Source: a virus
Taxonomy: Duplodnaviria; Heunggongvirae; Uroviricota; Caudoviricetes
Strand: one strand, 5' to 3'
IMG/VR virus record: IMGVR_UViG_2859827302_000005
Span: 1 to 40,732 of that record
DNA: 40,732 nucleotides
Shown here: positions 1-40,090 of the stretch, one piece after another
Position numbering within the stretch: the first letter of the stretch is position 1
How the letters are laid out: every line of letters begins with the position of its first letter
Translations under genes and position numbers: made by a program
The notes under the pieces: generated by a model
Told to the model about the DNA's origin: nothing
Databases searched by the model: none
The model's input: only the letters and a program-made list of their open reading frames with translations

Positions 1-171
1 TCAATAAATCCCATCATTGCGATCAACCTCATCCTTAACCATTGATGCGAGCAGTTCTTCCAGTTTCTGCGCTGACAGCTTTACCTGGTGATCTTCAGCA
101 TCTTCCCGGGCTATTGTGGTTCGCGCAGTGGCTGATTTTGCTGACATCACCACAGGGGGCAGACGGACCAT
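1..171 (-). CDS. hypothetical small protein (56 aa)
   Basis: ORF ending with a stop at window position 1-3; ATG at 171-169 preceded by GGAGG about 11 nt upstream. The longer 93-aa version in the ORF track overlaps the tfa-like remnant and is discounted. No family recognised. Confidence 0.3.
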   Translation of the reverse strand: MVRLPPVVMSAKSATARTTIAREDAEDHQVKLSAQKLEELLASMVKDEVDRNDGIY

Positions 172-233
172 TGAACCATGGCCTCCGGAACAAATAAGGG
201 CAAAAATAACAACCACTATCGAAAGCTCACAAA

Positions 234-554
234 CTAACCGCAGCACGTTCCTGCATACGACGTGTCTGCGGCATAATCCCAATGATTACTCCCTGACAGG
301 ATTTGCAGGCCACTCAATATCGGTGCAGTTGATGTATCAACACGATTCAACAATACCCGATATTTATTCCATGCCTCCAGCAACGATCTTTCTTCCTCCG
401 TTGCGATTTCCAGATCTACAGCATCCTGCAGTGGCGCAATATACTCACTGAATTCCTGGATGTAGAACTGTGTGGTGGCGGTCTTCCAGCCATTCGGCTC
501 CTGCTGTATCGAAGCATACCAGGCTATTTCAATATCGCTATGCTGCGGCAGCAT
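234..554 (-). pseudogene. tail fiber assembly (Tfa)-like remnant with a C-terminal frameshift
   Basis: Translation contains the Tfa motif [39 protein letters not shown]. Relative to the intact tfa at 1334..1918 one nt is missing (ccgatatt vs cctgatatt), so the reading frame runs into an unrelated tail. The N-terminal half differs from lambda Tfa. Confidence 0.5.
236..450. repeat. direct repeat copy A (tfa 3' end plus hairpin), about 215 bp
   Basis: Aligns by eye with 1285..1500 at roughly 85-90% identity. Includes the inverted repeat ccgcagcacgt...acgtgtctgcgg. Confidence 0.6.
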
Positions 555-622
555 TTAACCCCTTGTAATTCATCGCCATAATTGATTTAATTCACAAATA
601 AAACTATAACATGGTGAAATCA

Positions 623-1279
623 ATGAAAAAAAACACAGATGATGGGGCTAAAATTTACACACCACTTACCCTAAAGCTTTATGACTGGTGGGTTTTGGGA
701 GTATCAAATCGGCTTGCATGGGGATGTCCTACAAAGGAACACCTTCTTCCACACTTTCTGGAACATGTAGGTAACAACCATCTGGATATTGGTGTTGGAA
801 CTGGGTTTTACCTTACTCACGTACCTGAGAGTAGTCTGATATCTTTAATGGATTTGAACGAAGCTAGCCTGAACGCGGCATCTACAAGGGCTGGGGAATC
901 AAAAATTAAACATAAAATTAGCCATGATGTTTTTGAACCTTATCCCGCGGCGTTACATGGTCAATTTGATTCCATTTCCATGTTTTACCTTCTTCACTGC
1001 CTGCCTGGAAATATATCTACAAAAAGCTGTATAATACGCAATACGGCGCAGGCCTTAACTGACGATGGAACTCTATACGGAGCCACAATTCTTGGCGATG
1101 GAGTTGTGCACAATAGCTTCGGTCAAAAACTGATGCGCATTTACAATCAGAAAGGCATCTTTTCAAACACAAAAGATTCCGAAGAAGGCTTAACACATAT
1201 ACTCTCAGAGCATTTCGAGAATGTTAAAACCAAGGTTCAAGGTACTGTAGTAATGTTTTCCGCTTCAGGGAAAAAATAG
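623..1279 (+). CDS. class I SAM-dependent methyltransferase (moron; substrate unknown)
   Basis: Motif I HLDIGVGTGFY followed by an acidic beta-2 end (LMDLN). Visibly AT-rich, on the strand opposite to the phage late genes. GGTGA Shine-Dalgarno 5 nt before the ATG at 623; an alternative ATG lies at 611. Confidence 0.65.
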   Translation: MKKNTDDGAKIYTPLTLKLYDWWVLGVSNRLAWGCPTKEHLLPHFLEHVGNNHLDIGVGTGFYLTHVPESSLISLMDLNEASLNAASTRAGESKIKHKISHDVFEPYPAALHGQFDSISMFYLLHCLPGNISTKSCIIRNTAQALTDDGTLYGATILGDGVVHNSFGQKLMRIYNQKGIFSNTKDSEEGLTHILSEHFENVKTKVQGTVVMFSASGKK

Positions 1280-1319
1280 CATCCAACCGCAGCACGTTCT
1301 TGCTTAAGACGTGCTGCGG
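1271..1319 (-). terminator. putative intrinsic terminator downstream of tfa
   Basis: Perfect 11-bp stem ccgcagcacgt/acgtgctgcgg at 1287..1319, followed on the minus strand by a T-rich tract (ttggatgctatttttt). Confidence 0.4.
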
Positions 1320-1500
1320 CATAATCCCAATGATTACTCCCTGACAGGGTTCGTAGGCCACTCAATATCAGGTGCAGTTGATGTATCAACACGGTTCAGC
1401 AACACCCGATACTTTTTCCAGGCTTCCAGCAATGAGGTTTCTTCCTCCGTTGCAATTTCCAGATCTGCAGCATCCTGAAGCGGCGCAATATGCTCACTGG
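1285..1500. repeat. direct repeat copy B (3' end of intact tfa plus downstream hairpin)
   Basis: Homologous to 236..450; together the two copies flank the methyltransferase gene. Confidence 0.6.
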
Positions 1501-1918
1501 CTACCTGCATCAGGTTGTTTTTTGTTTCTTCCGCCTCCCGGATCCGGAACATTTTTTCTGCTTCCGTACCCTTCACCCAGGCTGTGCCGTTCCACTTCTG
1601 AAACTCCCCTTCCGGCGATAACCAGGTAACATTTTCCGGTAACGGACCGAGTTCAGAAATAAATAACTCGTCCCCTGACGCTACGTCATAAACCGTTTTA
1701 CCCCGATGGTCTTCAACGAGATGCCACGATGCCTCATCACTGTTGAAAACAGCCACAAAGCCAGCAGGAATATCTGGTGGTGCAATATCGGTACTGTTTG
1801 CTGGCAGACCTGTATGAGGCGGAATATATGCGTCACCTTCACCAATAAATTCATTAGTTCCGGCCAGCAGATTATAAATTTTTATGGTCCGTGCTTGTTC
1901 ACTCATTCTGAATGCCAT
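1334..1918 (-). CDS. tfa: tail fiber assembly protein Tfa (lambda orf-194 type)
   Basis: 194 aa, near-identical to lambda Tfa as I recall it (MAFRMSEQ...[12 protein letters not shown]). Its ATG overlaps the stf stop codon. Confidence 0.9.
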
Positions 1919-4893
1919 TATGCAAGCCTCACAATATAGTTAAATGCGATGTTTTTGACGGTGTTTTCCGCGTTACCAGCAGCGTTAACGGTGATGGTGT
2001 GTCCATGTGAACCAATCGCAACGGAGTGCGTATGCGCACCAATACCTACAGTATGTGCATGTGCGCCAGAACTTGCTGCAGTACCAGACAGCGAGTGGGT
2101 ATGAGCACCTGCTGACTGTGTCTGAATACGTTGATAATACGATCTACGGGAAGAAGTCCCCGGGCTTACTTGATACTGTGAATCCTGGACATAAGTGAAC
2201 CCACCGCCATCATAAAATGCTAACGCAGAACCGCCGCCTCCTGGCCAACGAATACCATTACCATGAGTATGATCACCGGCAGACCCCGTAGAGCCACTCA
2301 GACTGTGCGTATGCGCCCCGGTGTTATTCGTGGATTTGGTTCCGTAATCAAACGACGATGTGTTTTTCGTCCCCAAATCCGTACTGGATGCGCTGGCGCT
2401 GTGGGTGTGCGATTTAATGCCGTCCTGTTCCTGAGACAATACGGCACGACCACTGGCGGGTTTGCCCTTAATCGTCCAGCCACGCATATCAGGGATCACG
2501 CCTGACGGATAAGCGGCTGCAAGTTTCGGGTATGCAGATTTGTCAAAAGTCTGCCCCTGCATCAGGGCATAGCCAGACGGAACGGTATCTGATGGCCACG
2601 GGATTGGTGCGCCAGGCGGATAAAACTGCTCTGATGGCGTATAGAGTGCATAAACTGTACCGTCCGTTAACCCTTCCGGCTTATTAGCAGAATATGCTGG
2701 TGACGTATGAATCGTCACGCTGGCATTACTGGTATAATCCCATTGAATATTTACACCAGTCGCATAATTTCCGATTGCAACGTAAATATCGTAAGTATCA
2801 CCAGATGTATTGACCCAGGCAAAATTTGTAAACCCTGTCGATGTGCGCTGCCATAAAGCACCAGTAATCCCCTTCGGATTACCATTACCTGCACGCAAAA
2901 CAAGTTCAGATATACCTGCCTGTTGAGGTGACCCCACGTTAAATCCCGCACCACCAATCAACGTAATTGAAACAACAGAACTCGCCTGTGGCATGGTTAC
3001 CGTTGCTAATTTGAACCAACCAGCACCACCGCTGAATGACATTGTTGTTGAGTTAAGCGTACCAATATCTTTCGGCGTCAGTGTTATATCCGCTGAAAGC
3101 GCCTTACCATTCACCTTACGGGCAGAAGGTACCCGACCATTCGCATTATCATTAGCTGCTTTCACTGCTTTCGGTGTCGCGGCAAGCGTTTCAGATGCGC
3201 TGTTGGTTGCACTACTGAGCTGGACAATTCCTTTTTGTGCTGTCGTAGCGTCCTGAGCAGTATATTTCCCGTTAGCAAGGTCATAGGCTGCCTTTACCGA
3301 CTTTGGCGTTGCCGCCAGCATTTCAGATGTGCTGTTGGTCGCGTTGCTAAGCTGAACTATCCCTTTCTGTGCTGTCGTTGCATCCTGTGCGGTGTATTTC
3401 CCGTTAGCCAGCTCATACGCGGCCTTAACGGCTTTTGGCGTTGCCGCCAGTGACTCGGAAGTGCTGTTAGTCGCACTGCTGAGCTGTACTATCCCCTTTT
3501 TCGTCGTGCTCGCATCCTCAAGCGCCACGGCGGATGCAATATCCTCTGCCCGTTTTGCCGCTGTCTCAGCGCGCGTTGCCGCGGATTCCGCCGTACTTTT
3601 GCTCTGAGCTGCCGCCGTCGCACTGCCAGCTGCCTCTGTCGCCTTCGTGGATGCCGTCGTGGCGCTGCCCTTTGCTGCTGACGCCTGTCTGGTCGCCTCA
3701 TCTTTTGAAGCAGACGCAGATGATGCCGATGACGCCGCCGAACTGGCGGACGATGCGGCAGCCGTTTTTGAGGATTCTGCGCTGGTTTCCGACGCTTTCG
3801 CGTTCGTCTCGGATGTCTTCGCTGCGGAAGCAGACCTCGCTGCTGCGCTGGCCAGTACAGCGGCTTCGCCAGCCTTCGTTGTGGCTGTTGAAGCAGACGA
3901 TGCAGCACTTTCTGCAGATTTTCCGGCGGCGGTGGCACTGGCTGAGGCCTGCCCGGCACTTGTTGACGCGGCACTGGCAGATAATGCAGCCGCTGTTTTT
4001 GAGTCTGCCGCAGCTGAGGCGCTCTGTCCCGCTGCCGTTTCAGAAGACCTGGCGTTCGTCTCGGACGTTTTTGCCGCCTTCGCAGAATTTGCTGCCGCCG
4101 TTGCCGAGGAAGCTGCGCTGCTGGCGCTCGAGGCTGCGTTCGTTTCTGATGATTTTGCCGCCTCTTTTGAAGCCGACGCATCCCGTGCTGAAGTGGCTGC
4201 TTCTGACGCTTTCGTGGTCGCGGTGGATGCAGAAGTGGCTGCTGATTGTTGTGACGCTGCCGCATTCGTTTCTGACGTTTTCGCGGCACTGGCACTGGTA
4301 GCTGCCGCGCTTTTTGAGGACTCTGCAGCAGCAGCACTTTTCGATGCTTCACTGGCCTTTGTTGATGCCGCTCCTGCGCTGGAAGACGCTGACTGAGCCG
4401 ACGACGCGGCCTGTCCGGCTGACGTGCTGGCTGCGCGTGCTGAGCCTGCAGCATCAGTCGCATGGGTTGCCGCCTCACGGGCTGATGTGCGGGCATCGCT
4501 GGCTGACTTCTTCGCGGCTGCCGTGTTCTGTGCCACTGCGGACGCGTTACGCGCCACCTCTTCCACCATCAGTTCAAAACGGCGCAGTGCCTCTGGCCGG
4601 ACATCATCCTCCGTCATTGCACCGAGGAAATCATTCAGTGTGCCCGGCTTTGAGTCCTCATATACGGTGATAATCCCGGCGTGTGACGGCGGGAATCCCT
4701 CCACCAACAGACTGACGCTGTACTGACCATACTCGACGTCCATTGTATAACGCCCGGCTTCATCCGGATTTTCTGAGGCCACTGTGTTCACCACCACCGT
4801 GGTGCTGTTGCGCCTGGCCTTTAGCTGAATGGTGCAGTTTTGTATCGGCTTACCTGCACCATCTTTCAGTACACCTGAAATCAGTACTGCCAT
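1918..4893 (-). CDS. stf: side tail fiber protein Stf (StfR-like, 991 aa)
   Basis: Lambda Stf N-terminus ([32 protein letters not shown]). Long Ala/Ser/Thr-rich low-complexity shaft, three tandem 44-aa repeats, and a C-terminal tip with HTHSLSG/HxH repeats. Confidence 0.9.
3100..3500. repeat. three tandem ~132-bp repeats inside stf
   Basis: DNA repeat starts at about 3225, 3358 and 3489, encoding three copies of [44 protein letters not shown]. Confidence 0.5.
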
Positions 4894-4902
4894 ATTCCCC
4901 CC

Positions 4903-4931
4903 ACAAAAAAGCCCGCCTGAACCGGCGGGCT
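4903..4931 (-). terminator. intrinsic terminator downstream of lom
   Basis: Stem agcccgcc/ggcgggct with a 6-7 nt loop, followed on the minus strand by TTTTTTGT. Confidence 0.6.
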
Positions 4932-4957
4932 GTCATAACACTGTGTTACCTGGCTAA

Positions 4958-5557
4958 TCAGAATTTATAGCCGACACCAACGATGAAACTGTTGGTACGC
5001 CAGTCACCACTGCCGGAGCCTTCATAAGCAATATCAATGGCCACGGATTCGGTCGGGTTAAACTGCACGCCAGCCCCCCACGCCAGAGACGTGTTGCTGT
5101 GGCGACCGTCATCACTTCCGGTCAGCACATCGTGCGTTTTCCCCTTGTTGTCAGTTACACGGAGATAATCCCCGGAAAAAGTCGACACACGACTGTAAGT
5201 CACACCCGCCATCGCATACGCGCTGAACCATTCATTCACGCGCACAGACGGCCCCGCCATCACGCTGAACCAGCGGTTACGCACGGAATCTTCATGCCAG
5301 CGGGTATCGCTGTAATGCGTTTTTTGCTCATCTTTGGCATTGGCATAACTGAATGACGTCACCAGCCCCAGCGTGTCCGTAAACTCATAACGGTATTTCA
5401 CGTTAATCCCGTTCAGATCATCGCTGCCTGGCATATCAGTATGGGTCTGAAGATACCCGGCGCTTAGTGTGGACTGATGCTCTGCTGCGCTCGCTGGCAT
5501 ACCAGCGGCAACCAGCCAGACTACTGCGGACAGAATAACAGCACATAATTTACGCAT
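4958..5557 (-). CDS. lom: outer membrane protein Lom (Ail/Lom family)
   Basis: 199 aa with signal peptide and beta-barrel pattern ending ...FIVGVGYKF. Canonical position after J. Confidence 0.9.
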   Translation of the reverse strand: MRKLCAVILSAVVWLVAAGMPASAAEHQSTLSAGYLQTHTDMPGSDDLNGINVKYRYEFTDTLGLVTSFSYANAKDEQKTHYSDTRWHEDSVRNRWFSVMAGPSVRVNEWFSAYAMAGVTYSRVSTFSGDYLRVTDNKGKTHDVLTGSDDGRHSNTSLAWGAGVQFNPTESVAIDIAYEGSGSGDWRTNSFIVGVGYKF

Positions 5558-5624
5558 AATTACCTCTCGCTTTTCTGCAATAAAAAAGGCACCATTTCTG
5601 GTGCCCGTATCTGGGTTATAAAAT

Positions 5625-8600
5625 TCAGCTAATCGTGATGCCTGTAGTGGCTTTCTTCATCACCACAACCAGCAAATCGCTGATACTTGCTGTGGGATAC
5701 CAGTTATTTACCAGCCATGCTGACACCGAAAACTCCAGTGTCATGTGACCGTGACCGGCAGGCATATCAATAACGCCACTGTAAATCAGCGTATTATCCA
5801 GCGCGGTACGGTTATAAATTTCAGCACCGTTTTTCCGCACTATCAGACGGCATGAGGAGTAAATATCAGTATGCTCTCTCTCATGCTTAGCGCCACTGAA
5901 TGCCACCGCCGGAATAACAATTTGCCGGTCAAACGGCTGATCGTCATAAACCCTGACGGTAATGGTCCCTGATGGCCACCGCTCCGGTGCACGGGAGTCC
6001 CGGGGGAAAGCTTTGCCCACTGTTTTAACGAGATCGCCTTCAATCTGGTTGGCGGACAGTTTTCCCAGAACCCGACAGTTCTCGTTAATCGTGACGTTGT
6101 TGAGCGTCCCGGAGTTCGCATTCACGTTACCGCTAATATCGGCATTTTTCGCCGTCAGCCGCCCGTCCGGTGTCAGGGAAAATGCCGGAGGATTACCGCC
6201 GCTGGTAATGGTGGGAGCCGTCAGGCGTTTCAGGAACACGTCGTTCATGAATATCTGATCGCCCTGACCAACAAACATCGGCTTTGTGTTGCCATTCGCA
6301 GGATTAATCATCGCAATCCTGTCTGCCGCCAGCAGCACCTGACTCTGCATTCCTGCTGGCGTATTCTCAATACCGGCACCGATACCCGCAATATAAAGGC
6401 GTCCGTCCTTCATCTGTTGCAGCTTCACAGCCCACATGCTGTTCAGATTATTATTTGTATCAACCTGAACCTTCTGTATCTGCTGGATTGCCGCACTCTG
6501 GTCTTTCAGTTTCTTATTGACAGTCTGCGTGATTTCATTGCTGACATCCGTAATGGACGTCCTGATTTCAGCCAGGTCAGGCGCAAGCTGACCTTTATCA
6601 ATCTGCGTCCACAGCTCCTGAGCCAGATGGGTTTTCCCTATCTCGCCTTTGAAAAAATCCAGATAACCGGATGCATCATCACTCGGCTGACCAACAGCCT
6701 CCACGAATGCCGATTTGCCAACGGTGTTCACACTGCGAACGTAAAAATAATAATCATGGCCCGGTTTGATATTGATACTGGCGGCTATCCAGTACAGCCC
6801 CGTGCCAAGATAGCGCGCTGTGGTTTCAACCTTCCTGATATCGGTAATCCGCTTTTCCGAAAACCAGAACTCAAACTGTACCGTCGGGTCATAAACGGCA
6901 AGATGCGGCGTGGCGGTTATCTGAAAATAGCCCGACGTCAGCTCAATCCGCGACGGCGCTGCCGGTGCGGCAATCCGGAACGATACCGACGCCGGATCGC
7001 CCTGCTGTCCCCACGCATTTACCGCCCGGACCGTCAACATGTAACGCCCCAGCGCCAGCTGCCTGAAGCGGTATGTGGTTTCCGTCGTCCGGGCCGTGCT
7101 GACCAGCCGCTCACTGCCATCGTCCGCTGTCACGGTCAGGCGAAGCAGGAAGCTCACGCCCTTCACCACCTTCGGCGTGTCCCAGCGGGCCAGTACCTGA
7201 TACTCCCCGCTGTCTGCGGTGACTTCGGCAGTCAGGTGCTGCACCGCTGGCGGCGTGACACCATTCACCGTGCCGCTCTGGTCGCCGTCAAAGTGCGCCC
7301 CGTTATCCACGATGGCTTCTTTTTCCGGTACATGCTGCACGGCGGTGATGGCATACGTGCCGTCATCGTTCTCACGGATACTCACGCAGCGGAACAGGCG
7401 CTGGCGCAGCGTCGGCAGCTTCAGCCCCCACACGCTGTATTCGGCAACGCCGTCAGGAACACGGCTCACTTTCACCTTCACGCCGTCGGTGACGGACTGG
7501 ACCTCCACGCTGACCGGATTCCCCTGTCCGTCAACCAGGCTTATCAGCGTGGTGCCGGAGGATGGCAGCGTGATTTCACGGTCGAGCGTCAGTGTCCGCG
7601 TCTGGCTGTTCACCGCCAGCACGCGCCCGCCGATGCTGATACCCGCATAGTCATCATCACAGATTTCAATGACATCGCCCGGTACATGGCGAAGCCCTTC
7701 TGCACCCACGCTGAAGTCCACGGTCTGCGTTTCCAGCAGCTCCGTTTTAATCAGCCACAGCCCGGCGCGGTGTGCCTGCCCCCGGCTGGTACAGCCAAAG
7801 GCATCCATCTTCGTGACGTTACGACCGTAACGGGCAATGGCCTGCGTATCTTCAACAAGCTCTGTCGCCGTCTCCCAGCCGTTATCCGGGTCAATCCAGT
7901 TCACCTCAACGGCATTATGGCGGTCCTTCAGGGCGCTGAAGCTGTAGCGGAACGGCGCGCCATCATCCGGCATCACCACATTACTGCGGTTATAGGTCCA
8001 CACCTTATCCGACGGTCGGTCCTGCACGAACGTCAGCGTCTGCCCGTTCCATACCGGCATACAGCGCATCGCCGAACAGAAATCACTGAGCACATCCCAC
8101 GCCTTACGCTGTGTGGTCAGGTAAGCGTTACAGGTGATGCGCGGCTCCGTGCCACCAAAGCCATCCGGCACTGACTGATCGCAATACTGGCCGATGACAT
8201 ACAGCGCCCATTTGTCCACATCCGCCGCACCAAGACGTTTCCCCATGCCGTAGCGCGGGTGGGTCAGCATATCCCACAGACACCATGCCATGTTGTTGCT
8301 GTATGCCGGTTTAAACGTCCCGTCCCAGATACCGCTGTATTGCCGCGTCTGCGGGTTATAGTTCGATGGCACCTGCAGAATGCGCCCGCGAAGATGATAA
8401 TTACGGCTCACCTGCTGGCTGCCGAACTGTTCCGAGTCCACCTGCACGCCGACCAGTGCCGTGTTCGGGTAGCACTGTTTCACATCGATGATTTCAGTGT
8501 ATGACGACCAGAGCGTTTTGTTCTGCAGCTGGTCTGTGGTGCTGTCCGGCGTCATCCTGCGCATCCGGATATTAAACGGGCGCGGCGGCAGGTTACCCAC

Positions 8601-27507: not shown

Positions 27508-27618
27508 ACCCCGTCTCCCGTTATCCGGAAGCTGACAACAATAAAAAAAGCCACCAGTTAAGTACTGATGGCTCTGATAACTCATGCAGGCCTCTCAGAC
27601 GACCCACTGGATTTGCCC

Positions 27619-28524
27619 CTATATTTCCAGACATCTGTTATCACTTAACCCATTACAAGCCCGCTGCCGCAGATATTCCCGTGGCGAGCGATAACCCAGC
27701 GCACTATGCGGATGCCATTCGTTATAATGCTCGAACGCCTCTGCAAGGTTCTTTGCTGCCGTTAACCCGTCTGGTTTGGGCATGATACTGATGTAGTCAC
27801 GCTTTATCGTTTGCACGAAGCTCTCTGCTATTCCGTTACTCTCCGGACTCCGCACCGCCGTGTTCTTCGGTTCAAGTCCCAACATCCGGGCGAACTGGCG
27901 TGTTTCATTAGCCCGGTAGCATGAACCATTATCCGTCAGCCACTCCACTGGAGACGACGGAAGATCGTTGCCGAAGCGGCGTTCCACCGCTCCCAGCATG
28001 ACGTCCTGTACTGTTTCACTGTTGAAGCCGCCGGTAGTCACCGCCCAGTGCAGTGCCTCACGATCACAGCAGTCCAGCGCGAACGTGACACGCAGTCTCT
28101 CTCCGTTATCACAGCAGAACTCGAACCCGTCAGAGCACCATCGCTGATTGCTTTCTTTCACGGCCACTCTGCCTGTATGTGCCCGTTTCGATGGTGGTAC
28201 AGCAGGTTTTCGCTCAAGCAACAGCGCATTCTGGCGCATGATCCGGTAAACACGTTTGGCATTGATCGCAGGCATACCATCAAGTTCTGCCTGTCTGCGA
28301 AGCAGCGCCCATACCCGACGATAACCATACGTGGGCAGCTCTCCGATAACATGGTGTATACGGAGAAGCACATCCGTATCATCAGTGTGACGACTGCGGC
28401 GGCCATCCATCCAGTCATCGGTTCGTCTGAGAATGACGTGCAACTGCGCACGCGACACCCGGAGACAACGGCTGACTAAGCTTACTCCCCATCCCCGGGC
28501 AATAAGGGCGCGTGCGCTATCCAC
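27619..28524 (-). CDS. insD: IS2 transposase OrfB (InsD)
   Basis: 301-aa ORF with DDE integrase-like sequence; in IS2 it is expressed as a frameshift fusion with InsC. Confidence 0.9.
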
Positions 28525-28847
28525 TTTTTTGCCCGTCCATATTCAACGGCTTCTTTGAGGAGTTCATTTTCCATCGTTTTCTTGCCGAGCAGGCGCTGGA
28601 GTTCTTTAATCTGCTTCATGGCGGCAGCAAGTTCAGAGGCAGGAACAACCTGTTCTCCGGCGGCCACAGCAGTAAGACTTCCTTCCTGGTATTGCTTACG
28701 CCAGAGAAATAACTGGCTGGCTGCTACACCATGTTGCCGGGCAACGAGGGAGACCGTCATCCCCGGTTCAAAGCTCTGCTGAACAATTGCGATCTTTTCC
28801 TGTGTGGTACGCCGTCTGCGTTTCTCCGGCCCTAAGACATCAATCAT
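28482..28847 (-). CDS. insC: IS2 OrfA (InsC)
   Basis: 121 aa, [41 protein letters not shown]…, helix-turn-helix. Confidence 0.9.
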
Positions 28848-28993
28848 CTGTACTCCAATGACTAGTCTAAAAACTAGTATTAAGACTATCACTTATTTAA
28901 GTGATACTGGTTGTCTGGAGATTCAGGGGGCCAGTCTACCCACTGACACTACCGGTGAGTTTAACGATACCTTCCATTTGACTGGCTCACTTT

Positions 28994-30850
28994 TTATGAT
29001 GATGCCGGTGCATTTATCTCCAGCACCAGACTTTCTATCTCAACGCCATACGCTGCATTTTTGGTAATATCCGTCAGCGTCAGCGCATTCAGCCCCAGTG
29101 TCAGACTGTCTTTTATGACCTGGAATGCCGGGCCAGCCACTCCATTCAGTTTCGGAGTAACCGTGGCACTGCCGGCGGTGAACACCAGCTCCAGCGTCTG
29201 CCAGTCGTTACTGTAATTCCCGAACTCGCCCAACTTTGTGTTTCCGGCTTTCTTGTGATGCATCAGATTCAGTTTGCCGTCTGTGGTCTGGGTGAAGAAC
29301 GACATCAGGAACGGGTTACCAGTCCCGGTCATCGCCACGACGTCAGGTAACGCTACATCGGTATACAGATAAATTCCCAGACCGAACTGGTTGTTGGTCA
29401 GTGCGCCTGACAGTCGAAACTTACAGCTCAGTCTGCCACCCCGTGTCAGCAGGGAGACTGCGTCATCCACCGGATGCATCAGGGACCAGGTTTTATTGCT
29501 CTGCTTGGTAACCTTAAACACACCATCTTCCAGCGCAACACTGCCGCCGGTGATGGTCCAGCCCTGCGCAGCAGCCTCTCCGGCTGTCGGCAGCAGGGAG
29601 ACTGTACGAACGGATGTGTCACCATCAGACGGCCCCGATGGCGTGTCGCCGCCGGGCGAGGGTTTAATCTCCGGTGCGGTACCGCTGATGAAGGCGCTGG
29701 TTCGACCAACTGCGTTCAGAATAGCGGTTGCCAGGCGATCCGAAATAATGCCCCTGCGCGCCCATGAACTGAAATGTGTCGGACGATTTGACGATACCCA
29801 ATTACCATTACTACGGGATTGCGCGCCGTAATAACCTGCATCAGCAATATCCGGGTCTTCTGCCGGTAAGTTGGTGGGCGTGTTGTTGCCGTTACCGTCG
29901 GTCATGAACGGCACAAAGAAAACGTTGTCGCTCTCCCTGTTTTTGTACGCGCCGTAGACGGAGTCATACTGTGTGCCGTATGTGTTTTTCCAGTAATACG
30001 TCGTGTCGCCACAAATCCACGGTACAACTGCAGCACTGCCGCCATGGCACTGCGCGTTAAATCCGGAAAGGTCAGTACGGAACTGCTTCAGCATGGCCGT
30101 GAACAGGTCCGGTTGCTGTGCGTAGGTGGCAGCGCTCATGTCAAATTCGCCCTGCATCCAGCACACCGCCAGCAACACATTTTTCGGGTTCTTCTGTAAT
30201 GCCGCTTTGGTGCGTGCGATCAGGTCCTGATATAACGGTTTACCCACACCCCAGCGTGCCGAATCCTGGCTGGCCCCCGTGTCCGCACTGAATGTCCCCT
30301 CCGCGCCCTGGGTGAATGCCGAACCACCACGACAGCATGGTACCAGCAGGATCCCCGCGTTATTCGGGATATACGGAAGCAGTTTTTTGGCAATATGTAA
30401 GCCCTGGCCGACACAGCCGTACTGCCCTTTGCTCAGGTCTGCCTTCGGATGATTCAGTGCGCTCATATCCTGAACATCATGCAGGCAGTGGTCTGCCGGA
30501 ATGATGTCGTTAAATGCGCATGCTTTACCACCGGGAGTCACTGTGTTGCGACGGGCCAGTTGCTTAATACGTGGGTGGGGCGCATCGTAAGAATCCGGAA
30601 GCGGAAGCCCTTCACCGTAAGCCATGGCATTGGATTGCCCGGCCAGTACGATGACGTAGTACCACTCCGGCTCAGTTGCACCACTGACGACCACATCACC
30701 TTCTGCTGCAATCGCCTGCATCAGGGTATAAGGGGTTATGGCCACCGGACTACCAAACGGCTGCCAGCCCTCTTTCAGTTTATGTGTCAGCTTTTCCGCA
30801 AGATCTGACGGCGACGCCGCCCTGACAACATCATAGTGTTTAAATGCCAT
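28994..30850 (-). CDS. nanS: prophage sialate O-acetylesterase, NanS-p-like (SGNH hydrolase plus C-terminal domain)
   Basis: 618 aa from the ATG at 30850 (alternative ATG at 30865; the ORF-track start is a TTG inside IS1). SGNH motif VIVLAGQSNAMAYGE. Sits between the tRNA/stx slot and the holin, as nanS-p does in Stx phages. Confidence 0.7.
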   Translation of the reverse strand: MAFKHYDVVRAASPSDLAEKLTHKLKEGWQPFGSPVAITPYTLMQAIAAEGDVVVSGATEPEWYYVIVLAGQSNAMAYGEGLPLPDSYDAPHPRIKQLARRNTVTPGGKACAFNDIIPADHCLHDVQDMSALNHPKADLSKGQYGCVGQGLHIAKKLLPYIPNNAGILLVPCCRGGSAFTQGAEGTFSADTGASQDSARWGVGKPLYQDLIARTKAALQKNPKNVLLAVCWMQGEFDMSAATYAQQPDLFTAMLKQFRTDLSGFNAQCHGGSAAVVPWICGDTTYYWKNTYGTQYDSVYGAYKNRESDNVFFVPFMTDGNGNNTPTNLPAEDPDIADAGYYGAQSRSNGNWVSSNRPTHFSSWARRGIISDRLATAILNAVGRTSAFISGTAPEIKPSPGGDTPSGPSDGDTSVRTVSLLPTAGEAAAQGWTITGGSVALEDGVFKVTKQSNKTWSLMHPVDDAVSLLTRGGRLSCKFRLSGALTNNQFGLGIYLYTDVALPDVVAMTGTGNPFLMSFFTQTTDGKLNLMHHKKAGNTKLGEFGNYSNDWQTLELVFTAGSATVTPKLNGVAGPAFQVIKDSLTLGLNALTLTDITKNAAYGVEIESLVLEINAPASS

Positions 30851-30930
30851 GGTTCTTTCCACCATCTGAAAAATGGGTGATGCTGCCAACTTACTGATTT
30901 AGTGTATGATGGTGTTTTTGAGGTGCTCCA

Positions 30931-33370: not shown

Positions 33371-34429
33371 TCATCCGTTCTGGCTGACTAAATCCTGTAC
33401 TTCCCGAACCGTCTGCTCAAAACGTCCGGTCTCCAGCTCAACGCCAATCGCACGACGCCCGAGCGCCAGTGCCGCTTTTACCGTTGAACCTGAGTCCATA
33501 AAAAAATCTGCAACCAGGTCACCCGGACGACTGCTTGCGCTGATTATCTGCTGCAGCATTTCTGCCGGTTTTTCGCACGGATGTTTCCCGGGATAGAACT
33601 GCACCGGTTTATGTGTCCACACATCCGTGTACGGCACCTGCGCCGTCACACCAAAATACCGCCGCAGATGCTTATATTCACTCTGCAGCTCCACATACTG
33701 CCGGTTCAGTGACGTATACGTATCCACCAGCTGGTAGTGGGGCTTTTCCAGTTCACCGCGCTGATGTTTCTCTTCTGCCACCCGGGCAAACAGCGACTGT
33801 AATTTCAGATAATCGCTTTCGTTCGGTAGCTGCCACTGACTGGCACTGAACCAGTGCGACACCATGTTTTTCTTTCCTGTGGCATCTGCAATCTGTTTTG
33901 CCGTTATCCCCAGGGCCGCGCGCGCATCACGAAAGTAAGAAATCAGCGGGGCCATCACATGCTGTTTCAGTGCACTGCCCTTCGCCGCATACCCGGCATC
34001 TTTCGGACGATACGGCCCCTGATAATGTTCCGCGAACAGAATGCGCTCTGTGGCGGGGAAATACGCCCGCAGGCTTTCCTTGTTGCATCCGTTCCAGCGT
34101 CCGGACGGCTTCGCCCAGATAATATGGTTCAGCACACTGAAGCGTTCACGCATCATGATTTCGATATCAGATGCCAGGCGATGACCACAGAACAGGTAAA
34201 GACTTCCGGCAGGTTTCAGCACCCGCCAGAACTGCGCCAGACACTGGTCCAGCCACTTCAGGTAATCATCGTCGCCCTTCCACTGGTTATCCCAGCCCTC
34301 AGGCTTCACTTTAAAGTACGGCGGGTCCGTGACTATCAGGTCAACAGAATTTTCGGGTAACGACCGGATAAATTCCAGGCAGTCGGCGTTGATTAACTCA
34401 CAACTGGATATTTTTACAGTATTAGCCAT
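33371..34429 (-). CDS. orphan DNA N6-adenine (or N4-cytosine) methyltransferase, beta class
   Basis: 352 aa with an N-terminal DPPY motif (LIVTDPPYF) and a C-terminal SAM motif (DLVADFFMDSGST). No adjacent restriction endonuclease gene. Confidence 0.85.
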   Translation of the reverse strand: MANTVKISSCELINADCLEFIRSLPENSVDLIVTDPPYFKVKPEGWDNQWKGDDDYLKWLDQCLAQFWRVLKPAGSLYLFCGHRLASDIEIMMRERFSVLNHIIWAKPSGRWNGCNKESLRAYFPATERILFAEHYQGPYRPKDAGYAAKGSALKQHVMAPLISYFRDARAALGITAKQIADATGKKNMVSHWFSASQWQLPNESDYLKLQSLFARVAEEKHQRGELEKPHYQLVDTYTSLNRQYVELQSEYKHLRRYFGVTAQVPYTDVWTHKPVQFYPGKHPCEKPAEMLQQIISASSRPGDLVADFFMDSGSTVKAALALGRRAIGVELETGRFEQTVREVQDLVSQNG

Positions 34430-35004: not shown

Positions 35005-35826
35005 CTATCGCGTTACCCTCTTTAACTGCCGCTCCGCCCATGCCTCTTCAATGTCAAACCGAACCACCAACGTATCGTAAAAGCGTTTCACTGATTTTTT
35101 CCACGTATCAAGCGTGATAGCACTCGTCACTTTGCATATGGCATTAAATGCCTCCGTTGATGGTAGTCTTTCACAGCCACGACCACCACAACGCTGGCAG
35201 TCTCTGATAACAGGCATACCACGTTTTACCGACTCTTCACGATGAATGGCGACACCACGCCCACGGCAATCCTTACAGGCGGTGGAAACCTCACCCTTTC
35301 CGCCACACTCCGGACAGGCAACTTTTACCACCTCCCTGACTTTTTTCCATTCTTCCCAGTAAGACGGATACACACCTTTCGTACACTTTGCCCATACCGG
35401 CGGCTTACCATCCGGATACTGGACCTTGTTTGTAAAAACTACGCTTTCAATAAATTTTTCCCCATAGCAACAAGGGCACTGCTTTTTACTCGCTGCGCTG
35501 CGGGCATAATCCTCAAAAGCGTACGAAGCCATAATGCGCATCACTACCGGTTTTATTTCTGCCGGAAGTTTTCTCAACGCCGCCACACGATCGCACCGAC
35601 TGAGTGCATAATCTGCCAGTAATTCTGTTGCCCGCGCCCTGTCATTCATACTGATGCCCATTTTCCCCAGGAACGCAGAAAACCCCATCTCAGCCCGATT
35701 CTGTGTCATGCCCTGCGCGGCCATCACATCAGTGATACTCAGCGCATCTTTTGACGTTGAGGCCGATACATCGGTCAGGCCAGGGGATTTTGGGGAGTAG
35801 TATTTCGGTAAATCTTCCAGTTTCAT
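35005..35826 (-). CDS. Q: late antiterminator Q (Q82/YdfT-like, zinc-finger)
   Basis: 273 aa with CxxC…CxxC motifs (CPECGGKGEV…CKDCRGRG, CQRCGGRGCERLPSTEAF) resembling the phage-82-type Q family as I recall it. ATGA overlap with the rusA stop. Confidence 0.65.
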   Translation of the reverse strand: MKLEDLPKYYSPKSPGLTDVSASTSKDALSITDVMAAQGMTQNRAEMGFSAFLGKMGISMNDRARATELLADYALSRCDRVAALRKLPAEIKPVVMRIMASYAFEDYARSAASKKQCPCCYGEKFIESVVFTNKVQYPDGKPPVWAKCTKGVYPSYWEEWKKVREVVKVACPECGGKGEVSTACKDCRGRGVAIHREESVKRGMPVIRDCQRCGGRGCERLPSTEAFNAICKVTSAITLDTWKKSVKRFYDTLVVRFDIEEAWAERQLKRVTR

Positions 35827-38754: not shown

Positions 38755-38765
38755 TGGATTTGCCC

Positions 38766-39671
38766 CTATATTTCCAGACATCTGTTATCACTTAACCCAT
38801 TACAAGCCCGCTGCCGCAGATATTCCCGTGGCGAGCGATAACCCAGCGCACTATGCGGATGCCATTCGTTATAATGCTCGAACGCCTCTGCAAGGTTCTT
38901 TGCTGCCGTTAACCCGTCTGGTTTGGGCATGATACTGATGTAGTCACGCTTTATCGTTTTCACGAAGCTCTCTGCTATTCCGTTACTCTCCGGACTCCGC
39001 ACCGCCGTGTTCTTCGGTTCAAGTCCCAACATCCGGGCGAACTGGCGTGTTTCATTAGCCCGGTAGCATGAACCATTATCCGTCAGCCACTCCACTGGAG
39101 ACGACGGAAGATCGTTGCCGAAGCGGCGTTCCACCGCTCCCAGCATGACGTCCTGTACTGTTTCACTGTTGAAGCCGCCGGTAGTCACCGCCCAGTGCAG
39201 TGCCTCACGATCACAGCAGTCCAGCGCGAACGTGACACGCAGTCTCTCTCCGTTATCACAGCAGAACTCGAACCCGTCAGAGCACCATCGCTGATTGCTT
39301 TCTTTCACGGCCACTCTGCCTGTATGTGCCCGTTTCGATGGCGGTACAGCAGGCTTTCGCTCAAGCAACAGCGCATTCTGGCGCATGATCCGGTAAACAC
39401 GTTTGGCATTGATCGCAGGCATACCATCAAGTTCTGCCTGTCTGCGAAGCAGCGCCCATACCCGACGATAACCATACGTGGGCAGCTCTCCGATAACATG
39501 GTGTATACGGAGAAGCACATCCGTATCATCAGTGTGACGACTGCGGCGGCCATCCATCCAGTCATCGGTTCGTCTGAGAATGACGTGCAACTGCGCACGC
39601 GACACCCGGAGACAACGGCTGACTAAGCTTACTCCCCATCCCCGGGCAATAAGGGCGCGTGCGCTATCCAC
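38766..39671 (-). CDS. insD: IS2 transposase OrfB (InsD)
   Basis: 301 aa; one amino-acid difference from copy 1 (K vs Q). Confidence 0.9.
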
Positions 39672-39994
39672 TTTTTTGCCCGTCCATATTCAACGGCTTC
39701 TTTGAGGAGTTCATTTTCCATCGTTTTCTTGCCGAGCAGGCGCTGGAGTTCTTTAATCTGCTTCATGGCGGCAGCAAGTTCAGAGGCAGGAACAACCTGT
39801 TCTCCGGCGGCCACAGCAGTAAGACTTCCTTCCTGGTATTGCTTACGCCAGAGAAATAACTGGCTGGCTGCTACACCATGTTGCCGGGCAACGAGGGAGA
39901 CCGTCATCCCCGGTTCAAAGCTCTGCTGAACAATTGCGATCTTTTCCTGTGTGGTACGCCGTCTGCGTTTCTCCGGCCCTAAGACATCAATCAT
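39629..39994 (-). CDS. insC: IS2 OrfA (InsC)
   Basis: 121 aa, identical to copy 1. Confidence 0.9.
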
Positions 39995-40090
39995 CTGTAC
40001 TCCAATGACTAGTCTAAAAACTAGTATTAAGACTATCACTTATTTAAGTGATACTGGTTGTCTGGAGATTCAGGGGGCCAGTCTAATCTT

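Follow-up and report, generated by a model that had tools for sequence, protein, structure and literature searches.

What is a methyltransferase gene doing at the end of a lambdoid prophage, on the strand opposite to the whole late operon and between two copies of the end of a tail-fibre assembly gene? The locus lies at the left of a stretch of 40,732 nucleotides (nt), positions 1 to 40,732 of the IMG/VR virus record IMGVR_UViG_2859827302_000005 (Caudoviricetes), which is called the window here. The window is a lambdoid prophage, 99.7% like the one that adjoins a truncated ompW downstream of the trp operon in UTI89, S88 and APEC O1. A sequence-only reading had taken the gene for cargo (a moron) exchanged by recombination between homologues of tfa, the tail-fibre assembly gene, and had not recognised it. 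It is in fact ybcY, long annotated in the tfaD-ybcY-tfaX locus of the cryptic prophage DLP12 of Escherichia coli K-12, and so is not a new cargo gene. Our preferred reading, to which we give a probability of roughly 80%, is that the locus is a one-gene ybcY moron cassette lying just past the tfa hairpin, captured and moved via tfa homology, whose product acts as a methyltransferase of a small molecule or a lipid head group in the lysogen. The features on which the argument turns are the following, with lengths of products in amino acids (aa) and the basis of each call in brackets.

234 to 554, minus strand: tfaX-like chimeric open reading frame (ORF) or pseudogene, 106 aa (Caudo_TAP, PHROG 2341)
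236 to 461, no strand: left copy of a direct repeat, with a hairpin at 238-271 that has a bulged T (self-alignment, folding)
555 to 622, no strand: AT-rich spacer (27.9% GC) between the divergent ybcY and tfaX-like ORF (sequence, GC count)
623 to 1279, plus strand: ybcY, class I S-adenosylmethionine (SAM)-dependent methyltransferase, 218 aa (222 aa if read from the in-frame ATG at 611)
1285 to 1510, no strand: right copy of the direct repeat, made up of a hairpin and the last 58 codons of the intact tfa (self-alignment)
1287 to 1319, no strand: hairpin between the convergent ybcY and tfa, with a perfect stem of 11 bp (RNA folding)
1334 to 1918, minus strand: intact tail-fibre assembly gene tfa, 194 aa (Caudo_TAP, E = 8e-44; 94% nucleotide identity to tfa of lambda)

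The element is a known one: K-12 has for decades been annotated with the gene in this layout and prophage context, and the cassette is not novel. Positions 309-1772 of the window show 96.7% nucleotide identity to the tfaD-ybcY-tfaX region of DLP12, where tfaD is followed by ybcY on the opposite strand, tfaX, and then appY and ompT. The K-12 gene (b0562) has 99% nucleotide identity to that of the window and is a pseudogene, a 2-nt deletion having removed its ATG. Among phages, the annotation of PhiR26_1 names the methyltransferase YbcY, and a full-length match (positions 1-218 of 218, E = 3.3e-156) assigns the protein to PHROG 2132, labelled 'unknown function'. The synteny of tfa, a convergent ybcY and tfaX is common to DLP12 of K-12, UTI89, PhiR26_1 and phage 2G7b.

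The gene is also widespread in the species. At 95% identity or more it was found in 3798 of 5426 complete E. coli genomes (~70%), with up to four copies per genome, and the cassette as a whole (query 225-1520) was covered to at least 80% in 2736 of the 5426. Carriers include uropathogenic and avian pathogenic E. coli as well as O157 and Nissle strains, and about 15 sequenced phages, several of them lambdoid, have the gene too. The reading frame is intact in the window, O157, Nissle and 2G7b; truncated copies exist, as do copies disrupted by insertion sequences (IS). As a genome feature, then, ybcY matters little, having been annotated for decades and being present in most E. coli genomes, and the fact that the laboratory strain's copy is dead may be why nobody has looked at it. 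The point that remains is biochemical, in that knowledge of the substrate would tell what a very common accessory gene does.

The methyltransferase ORF runs from 611 to 1279 on the plus strand (222 aa). In an alignment of 37 homologues its fifth residue, M5, is invariant; all homologues begin there, which places the real start at the ATG at 623 and gives a product of 218 aa. As the sequence-only reading had it, the gene stands on the plus strand, opposite to the late operon, and in an AT-rich island: the measured GC content is 40.9% for ybcY (35.6% at third codon positions) and 27.9% for the spacer at 555-622, against 48.0% for tfa, 54.7% for the side tail fibre gene stf and 53.1% for the whole window.

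The direct repeats that had been noticed by eye on either side of the gene are real and slightly longer than first thought, at 226 nt each (236-461 and 1285-1510). The two copies, direct and not inverted, agree in 200 of 227 alignment columns (88.1%), with two 1-nt indels and a self-BLAST E value of 5e-73. Each begins with a hairpin and then enters the C-terminal domain of Tfa, so that the description of the repeat as a tfa 3' end plus hairpin stood as to content, while the number of codons, put at about 65, had to be lowered to 58 for the right copy. The assignment of the right copy to the intact tfa was upheld by the Caudo_TAP match of the latter. So was that of the left copy to a tfa-like ORF with a different N-terminus and a 1-nt frameshift: the tfaX-like ORF has 37 unrelated N-terminal residues, followed by the Tfa C-terminal domain, which is frameshifted near its end. 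It matches Caudo_TAP (residues 29-78, E = 9e-19) and PHROG 2341 (E = 9.5e-55), and RefSeq gives it as a pseudogene in UTI89 and as tfaX in K-12. One of the two indels lies in the left hairpin. The other, which shifts the frame, lies about 11 codons before the tfa stop of the left copy, where the counterpart of position 1370 of the right copy is missing. An invertible host-range switch of the Mu G or e14 P type was considered for this arrangement and rejected: the repeats run in the same direction, the annotation of the orthologous prophage end of UTI89 shows no recombinase gene, and the second tfa copy, being frameshifted, cannot serve as such a switch.

The right hairpin (1287-1319) folds with an energy of -23 kcal/mol on the plus strand and -28.5 kcal/mol on the minus strand (z about -5). 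It is shared by ybcY and tfa, which are convergent, with ybcY ending at it. It is probably a bidirectional terminator or a stabiliser of RNA ends, and it marks the distal edge of the tfa module. An ORF of 45 aa at 1224-1361 on the minus strand (WP_001309429.1 of RefSeq, a hypothetical protein) was probably annotated in error, since it overlaps the 3' end of ybcY, the hairpin and the 3' end of tfa.

The status of ybcY as cargo was borne out by comparison with phages that have a closely related tfa and no ybcY, namely lambda, Salmonella phage SPF_0923 and PhiR42_1. Other genes stand at their tfa-distal junction: ea47 in lambda, sitABCD in SPF_0923 and a Pin recombinase gene in PhiR42_1. In lambda and SPF_0923, homology to the window stops at AACCGCAG, the foot of the hairpin just before its stem, and the alignment places there, at the same point, the end of the match between the two repeat copies of the window. 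Since homology is shared up to the same hairpin and different cargo follows, the moron reading holds, and the common breakpoint at AACCGCAG makes the hairpin a fixed outer edge of the tfa module with exchangeable cargo beyond it. The junction alignment illustrates neatly how a cargo slot in lambdoid phages can have a fixed limit, set by the terminator hairpin of tfa. It also bears on whether the gene might be a conserved syntenic part of the tail-fibre module across unrelated phages, a question with a divided answer: the cassette recurs in several lineages, yet it is absent from lambda, SPF_0923 and PhiR42_1.

Further cargo is seen in O157:H7 (SS TX 313-1), where yciG, yciF and yciE paralogues and a manganese catalase gene lie between ybcY and tfa-stf (3782-7862 of the examined locus). 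On the other side of ybcY in this strain there is an ISEc8 element. In SPF_0923, whose record is listed as a complete genome, the sitABCD genes, which encode a manganese/iron transporter, occupy positions 1-2860, in the slot after tfa.

The cassette is also found away from an intact module. Phage 2G7b carries it with both tfa pieces, as fragments, beside an unrelated tail-fibre gene, and decayed remnants keep it in Nissle 1917 (ompT-ybcY-tfa'-int'-tRNA-Arg), in O157 and as a potB-adjacent scrap in another strain. Together with 2G7b, these remnants are consistent with travel of the cassette and its tfa-derived flanks as one unit. The proposed recombination between tfa homologues agrees with all these data, and we infer, rather than observe, an exchange mediated by the repeats. 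Under the preferred reading the slot would be the variable region that corresponds to the b region of lambda, and ybcY would have been taken up from the chromosome of an enterobacterium. Its insertion by an unequal or illegitimate exchange may have left the 226-nt duplication of the tfa 3' end as a scar, and the repeats, together with the conserved tfa, could now serve as the homologous sequence for transfer of the cassette between lambdoid backbones or for its loss.

The constant association with tfa would be explained in another way if YbcY were an anti-phage or superinfection-exclusion factor, or a modifier of the tail fibre or its chaperone. The gene adjoins receptor-binding genes in a cargo hotspot, and other phages are a frequent target of prophage morons located in this way. 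We nevertheless consider a role of this kind highly improbable: none of the PADLOC-DB 2.0 models matched YbcY at E values up to 0.01, phages with the same tfa work without ybcY, and the homologues of other genera are solitary, with no tail-fibre genes beside them, though some are on mobile islands. Moreover, as ybcY lies on the strand opposite to the late operon, it is not co-expressed with stf and tfa.

An independent promoter for ybcY is plausible from the sequence of the spacer, its position being uncertain. The spacer (555-622) contains the hexamers TTGATT (582-587) and TATAAC (605-610), separated by a 17-nt gap, and a possible ribosome-binding site, GGTGA, at 613-617. In K-12, genomic SELEX (systematic evolution of ligands by exponential enrichment) gave a divergent constitutive site of the RpoD holoenzyme and an H-NS mark in the ybcY/tfaX spacer, with TTGATT-17-TATAAC on the ybcY side (PMC3946193), and the hexamers of the window are identical to those listed there. 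Our own scan for a promoter consensus did no better than on shuffled sequence and picked out nothing but a weaker site at 555-582. In the scheme that we favour, ybcY would be expressed from its own sigma-70 promoter, silenced by H-NS and independent of the late operon, and its benefit would go to the host and not to the virion.

As for the product, its assignment to the class I SAM-dependent methyltransferases, first made from the motif DIGVGTG in a protein of 218 aa, was corroborated by profiles and by the predicted fold. Motif I is present as LDIGVGTG, with D59, G61, G63, T64 and G65 invariant in the 37 homologues, and three Pfam profiles score above their cut-offs (Methyltransf_12, 36.0 bits for a cut-off of 30; Methyltransf_23, 27.4 for 27; Methyltransf_11, 22.5 for 21.2). 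The AlphaFold2 model, built with the same 37 homologues (predicted local distance difference test score, pLDDT, 90.6), has the seven-stranded class I topology, with a seven-stranded beta-sheet flanked by helices and, at the end of beta-2, the acidic residue that serves the ribose hydroxyls in this class. It closes with beta-strands at 202-210 and 213-221 and has no C-terminal helix. YbcY, in which no transmembrane segment was found, is a soluble protein. Profile and structure searches thus agreed on a SAM-binding fold.

The best Foldseek match in the PDB is Rt-PmtA in complex with DMPE and S-adenosylhomocysteine (8ys9; E = 3e-12, TM-score 0.62-0.67, similar length), and further matches are juvenile-hormone acid methyltransferase (JHAMT), phosphoethanolamine methyltransferases, SgvM and CysG. 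The likeness to such class I enzymes of small molecules and lipids is one of fold, with an identity of only 11-21% between YbcY and Rt-PmtA (8ys9), JHAMT (7ec0), PfPMT, DhpI (3ou2), BelI/CysG, UbiG and Coq5. No named NCBIfam family was reached by YbcY, the best E value of 0.006 being far below cut-off; membership of CpaM and RquA was rejected on this ground (E about 0.006-0.009, cut-offs 175-180 bits). Searches of solved structures by sequence, with or without a profile, gave only weak matches (JHAMT, UbiG), and a structure search of BFVD returned generic viral methyltransferases only. We propose that the enzyme would methylate a small molecule or a lipid head group, at an O, N, S or C atom, and not DNA, in the cytoplasm of the lysogen.

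A nucleic-acid target, be it DNA (with an anti-restriction or epigenetic role) or a nucleotide of tRNA or rRNA, appears quite unlikely to us. A regular-expression search of YbcY found no (D/N/S)PP(Y/F/W) motif and no PC...ENV pair, and the 218-aa protein is single-domain, with no Pfam DNA-methylase match and no target-recognition or other extra domain; a DNA methylase was rejected on the lack of such motifs and on domain content. Nor does YbcY match the DNA or RNA methylase families of Pfam and NCBIfam, and its top structural matches are small-molecule enzymes. The prophage, finally, already encodes an N6_N4 DNA methylase of its own (33371-34429), which we count against YbcY being another.

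The most interesting specific guess is that YbcY is a PmtA-like phospholipid N-methyltransferase, turning phosphatidylethanolamine into its methylated forms or phosphatidylcholine in a lysogenic conversion of the membrane. To the top Foldseek rank of Rt-PmtA, with phosphoethanolamine N-methyltransferases close behind, can be added that the family profile also reaches 8ys9 (E = 0.064) and that the aromatic residues Y24, W26, W27, W37, Y67, Y126, Y178 and F184 are invariant, as in amine-methylating pockets. PmtA has a catalytic Tyr10 and the head-group ligands Ser120, His117 and His147 (PMC11446283); the invariant Y16/Y24 and H129 of YbcY are candidate counterparts of these catalytic and head-group residues. 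However, YbcY departs from R-type PmtA both in sequence, with 14-16% identity in the structural alignment and a profile match at no better than the E value just given, and in having no C-terminal helix, an element required for function in the R-type enzymes (PMC11446283). We therefore find it very doubtful that YbcY is such an enzyme. A broader proposal, which we hold tentatively and still as rather unlikely, is that of a lysogenic-conversion enzyme that modifies an envelope lipid head group or else an exogenous toxic metabolite or antimicrobial, a trait that some 70% of E. coli strains would owe to the gene and that K-12, with its dead copy, would have kept from study.

Outside E. coli, homologues with 55-89% identity occur across Enterobacterales and beyond (2296 matches). 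A profile search of 1.84 billion cluster representatives gave 417 clusters at E <= 1e-30, reaching Francisellaceae and a Bacteroidota species, which sets the size of the family at no fewer than 417 clusters at 50% identity. The distant representatives bear generic names only ('UbiE', 'class I SAM-dependent methyltransferase'), and no characterised member was found in the family. In Salmonella, Enterobacter, Yersinia, Citrobacter and Aureivirga each homologue stands by itself, on a chromosome or a genomic island, and the adjoining genes differ from case to case; the homologues of other Enterobacterales at 55-70% identity are solitary and chromosomal. The eight homologue groups have no neighbour in common, so that genomic context suggests no pathway and fits a modifying enzyme that works on its own. 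The length of the protein and about 55 of its residues are invariant among the 37 homologues, including Y16, Y24, D25, W26, W27, N33, W37, C39, H129, C130, N168, Y178, N179, N186 and D189, and the ratio of non-synonymous to synonymous substitution rates (dN/dS) between ybcY and the Citrobacter, Salmonella and Enterobacter homologues is 0.11-0.23, a sign of purifying selection. The conserved length and residues and the low dN/dS indicate that the family is functional. The phage copy in E. coli looks like a capture from an enterobacterial chromosome.

Several points nevertheless weigh against the preferred reading. Use of the TTGATT/TATAAC pair would leave a leader of only ~6 nt before the ATG at 623, and the real promoter may be elsewhere. 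These data do not allow the origin of the duplication to be traced to a particular event. In the papers searched we found no functional study of ybcY, its mentions there being incidental. Within E. coli, dN/dS is 0.28-0.86 on 4-10 substitutions, too few to show selection; the K-12 copy is a pseudogene, and persistence by hitch-hiking is possible.

Taken to its end, this last argument makes ybcY functionless in E. coli today, a relic that hitch-hikes in a recombination-prone and often transferred tail-fibre region. The dead K-12 copy, with its ATG lost to the 2-nt deletion, and the existence of truncated copies would be expected of such a relic, and no phenotype has been reported for deletion of the region in the papers found. 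The E. coli alleles, at least 97.9% identical, point to a recent spread, and within-species selection is for that reason not measurable. The ORF has nonetheless stayed intact in the window, O157, Nissle and 2G7b, including remnants stripped of almost all else (Nissle ompT-ybcY-tfa'), the 90%-identity cluster of YbcY counts 6589 sequences, and across the wider family protein length is conserved and the selection noted above is seen. A functionless ybcY is, on balance, unlikely.

The tail genes around the cassette comprise the following.

1 to 233, minus strand: C-terminal scrap of a DUF4376 / tail-fibre-like gene (PHROG 1141 and 7703; a pseudogene in UTI89, followed by the truncated ompW)
1918 to 4893, minus strand: stf, side tail fibre gene, 991 aa, preceding tfa in the late operon (ORF; prophage tail fibre in UTI89 and related phages)
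4958 to 5557, minus strand: lom (ORF at the left part of the window)

The scrap at 1-233 is the last prophage DNA before the ompW-side junction, and with the tfaX-like ORF it resembles the remains of a second module of fibre and chaperone at the prophage end. In stf, on the minus strand, the N-terminal half of the product is a long repetitive tract rich in Ala, Ser, Thr and Lys (about 3400-4600 of the window), in which GC content rises to 60-66% and the AT skew is strongly negative. Stf has 991 aa in the window and 1035 aa in UTI89, which indicates that the number of repeats varies between strains.

Farther into the window, an insertion sequence of 1331 bp, presumably IS2 to judge by its size, is present in two direct copies (27608-28938 and 38755-40085) that are 99.8% identical, each with a 136-aa HTH_Tnp_1 ORF and a 301-aa rve integrase ORF. 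The pair brackets ~10 kb of the early-to-lysis region of the prophage and could mediate its deletion or transposition. The DNA methylase at 33371-34429 on the minus strand has 352 aa (Pfam N6_N4_Mtase, E = 3e-42), and its gene lies on that side of the Q antiterminator gene (35005-35826) which faces the late operon. A protein of 631 aa (28994-30889, minus strand) combines DUF1737, SASA (sialate O-acetylesterase) and DUF6645 domains, and we take it to resemble the NanS-p esterases of lambdoid and Stx prophages.

Among known systems, the closest is DLP12 itself, which shares with the window the gene, its order and orientation (with tfaX divergent), the AT-rich spacer and the promoter hexamers. 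The two differ in that ybcY is dead in DLP12 and intact in the window, and in their surroundings: in DLP12 the upstream late operon is deleted and appY-ompT comes after tfaX, whereas in the window a full stf-tfa module precedes the cassette and the DUF4376 scrap and the ompW-side junction follow it.

The locus also recalls the invertible regions of Mu (G), P1 (C) and e14/Rac (P, with Pin), in which a partial second tfa-like sequence likewise lies beyond a functional tfa, and related phages have a Pin recombinase at this very spot. Unlike in those regions, the copies in the window are direct, and the UTI89 prophage end has no annotated recombinase.

Finally, ybcY resembles the morons that lambdoid phages carry after the tail fibre and in the b region (lom and bor of lambda, sitABCD, the type III secretion system effectors of O157) in its deviant composition, its place between conserved modules and its absence from close relatives, and its slot is the same as that of ea47 in lambda, pin in PhiR42_1 and sitABCD in SPF_0923. 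It differs from those morons in encoding a cytoplasmic methyltransferase, and not an envelope protein, a transporter or a secreted effector, and in being flanked by a duplicated piece of the neighbouring tfa.

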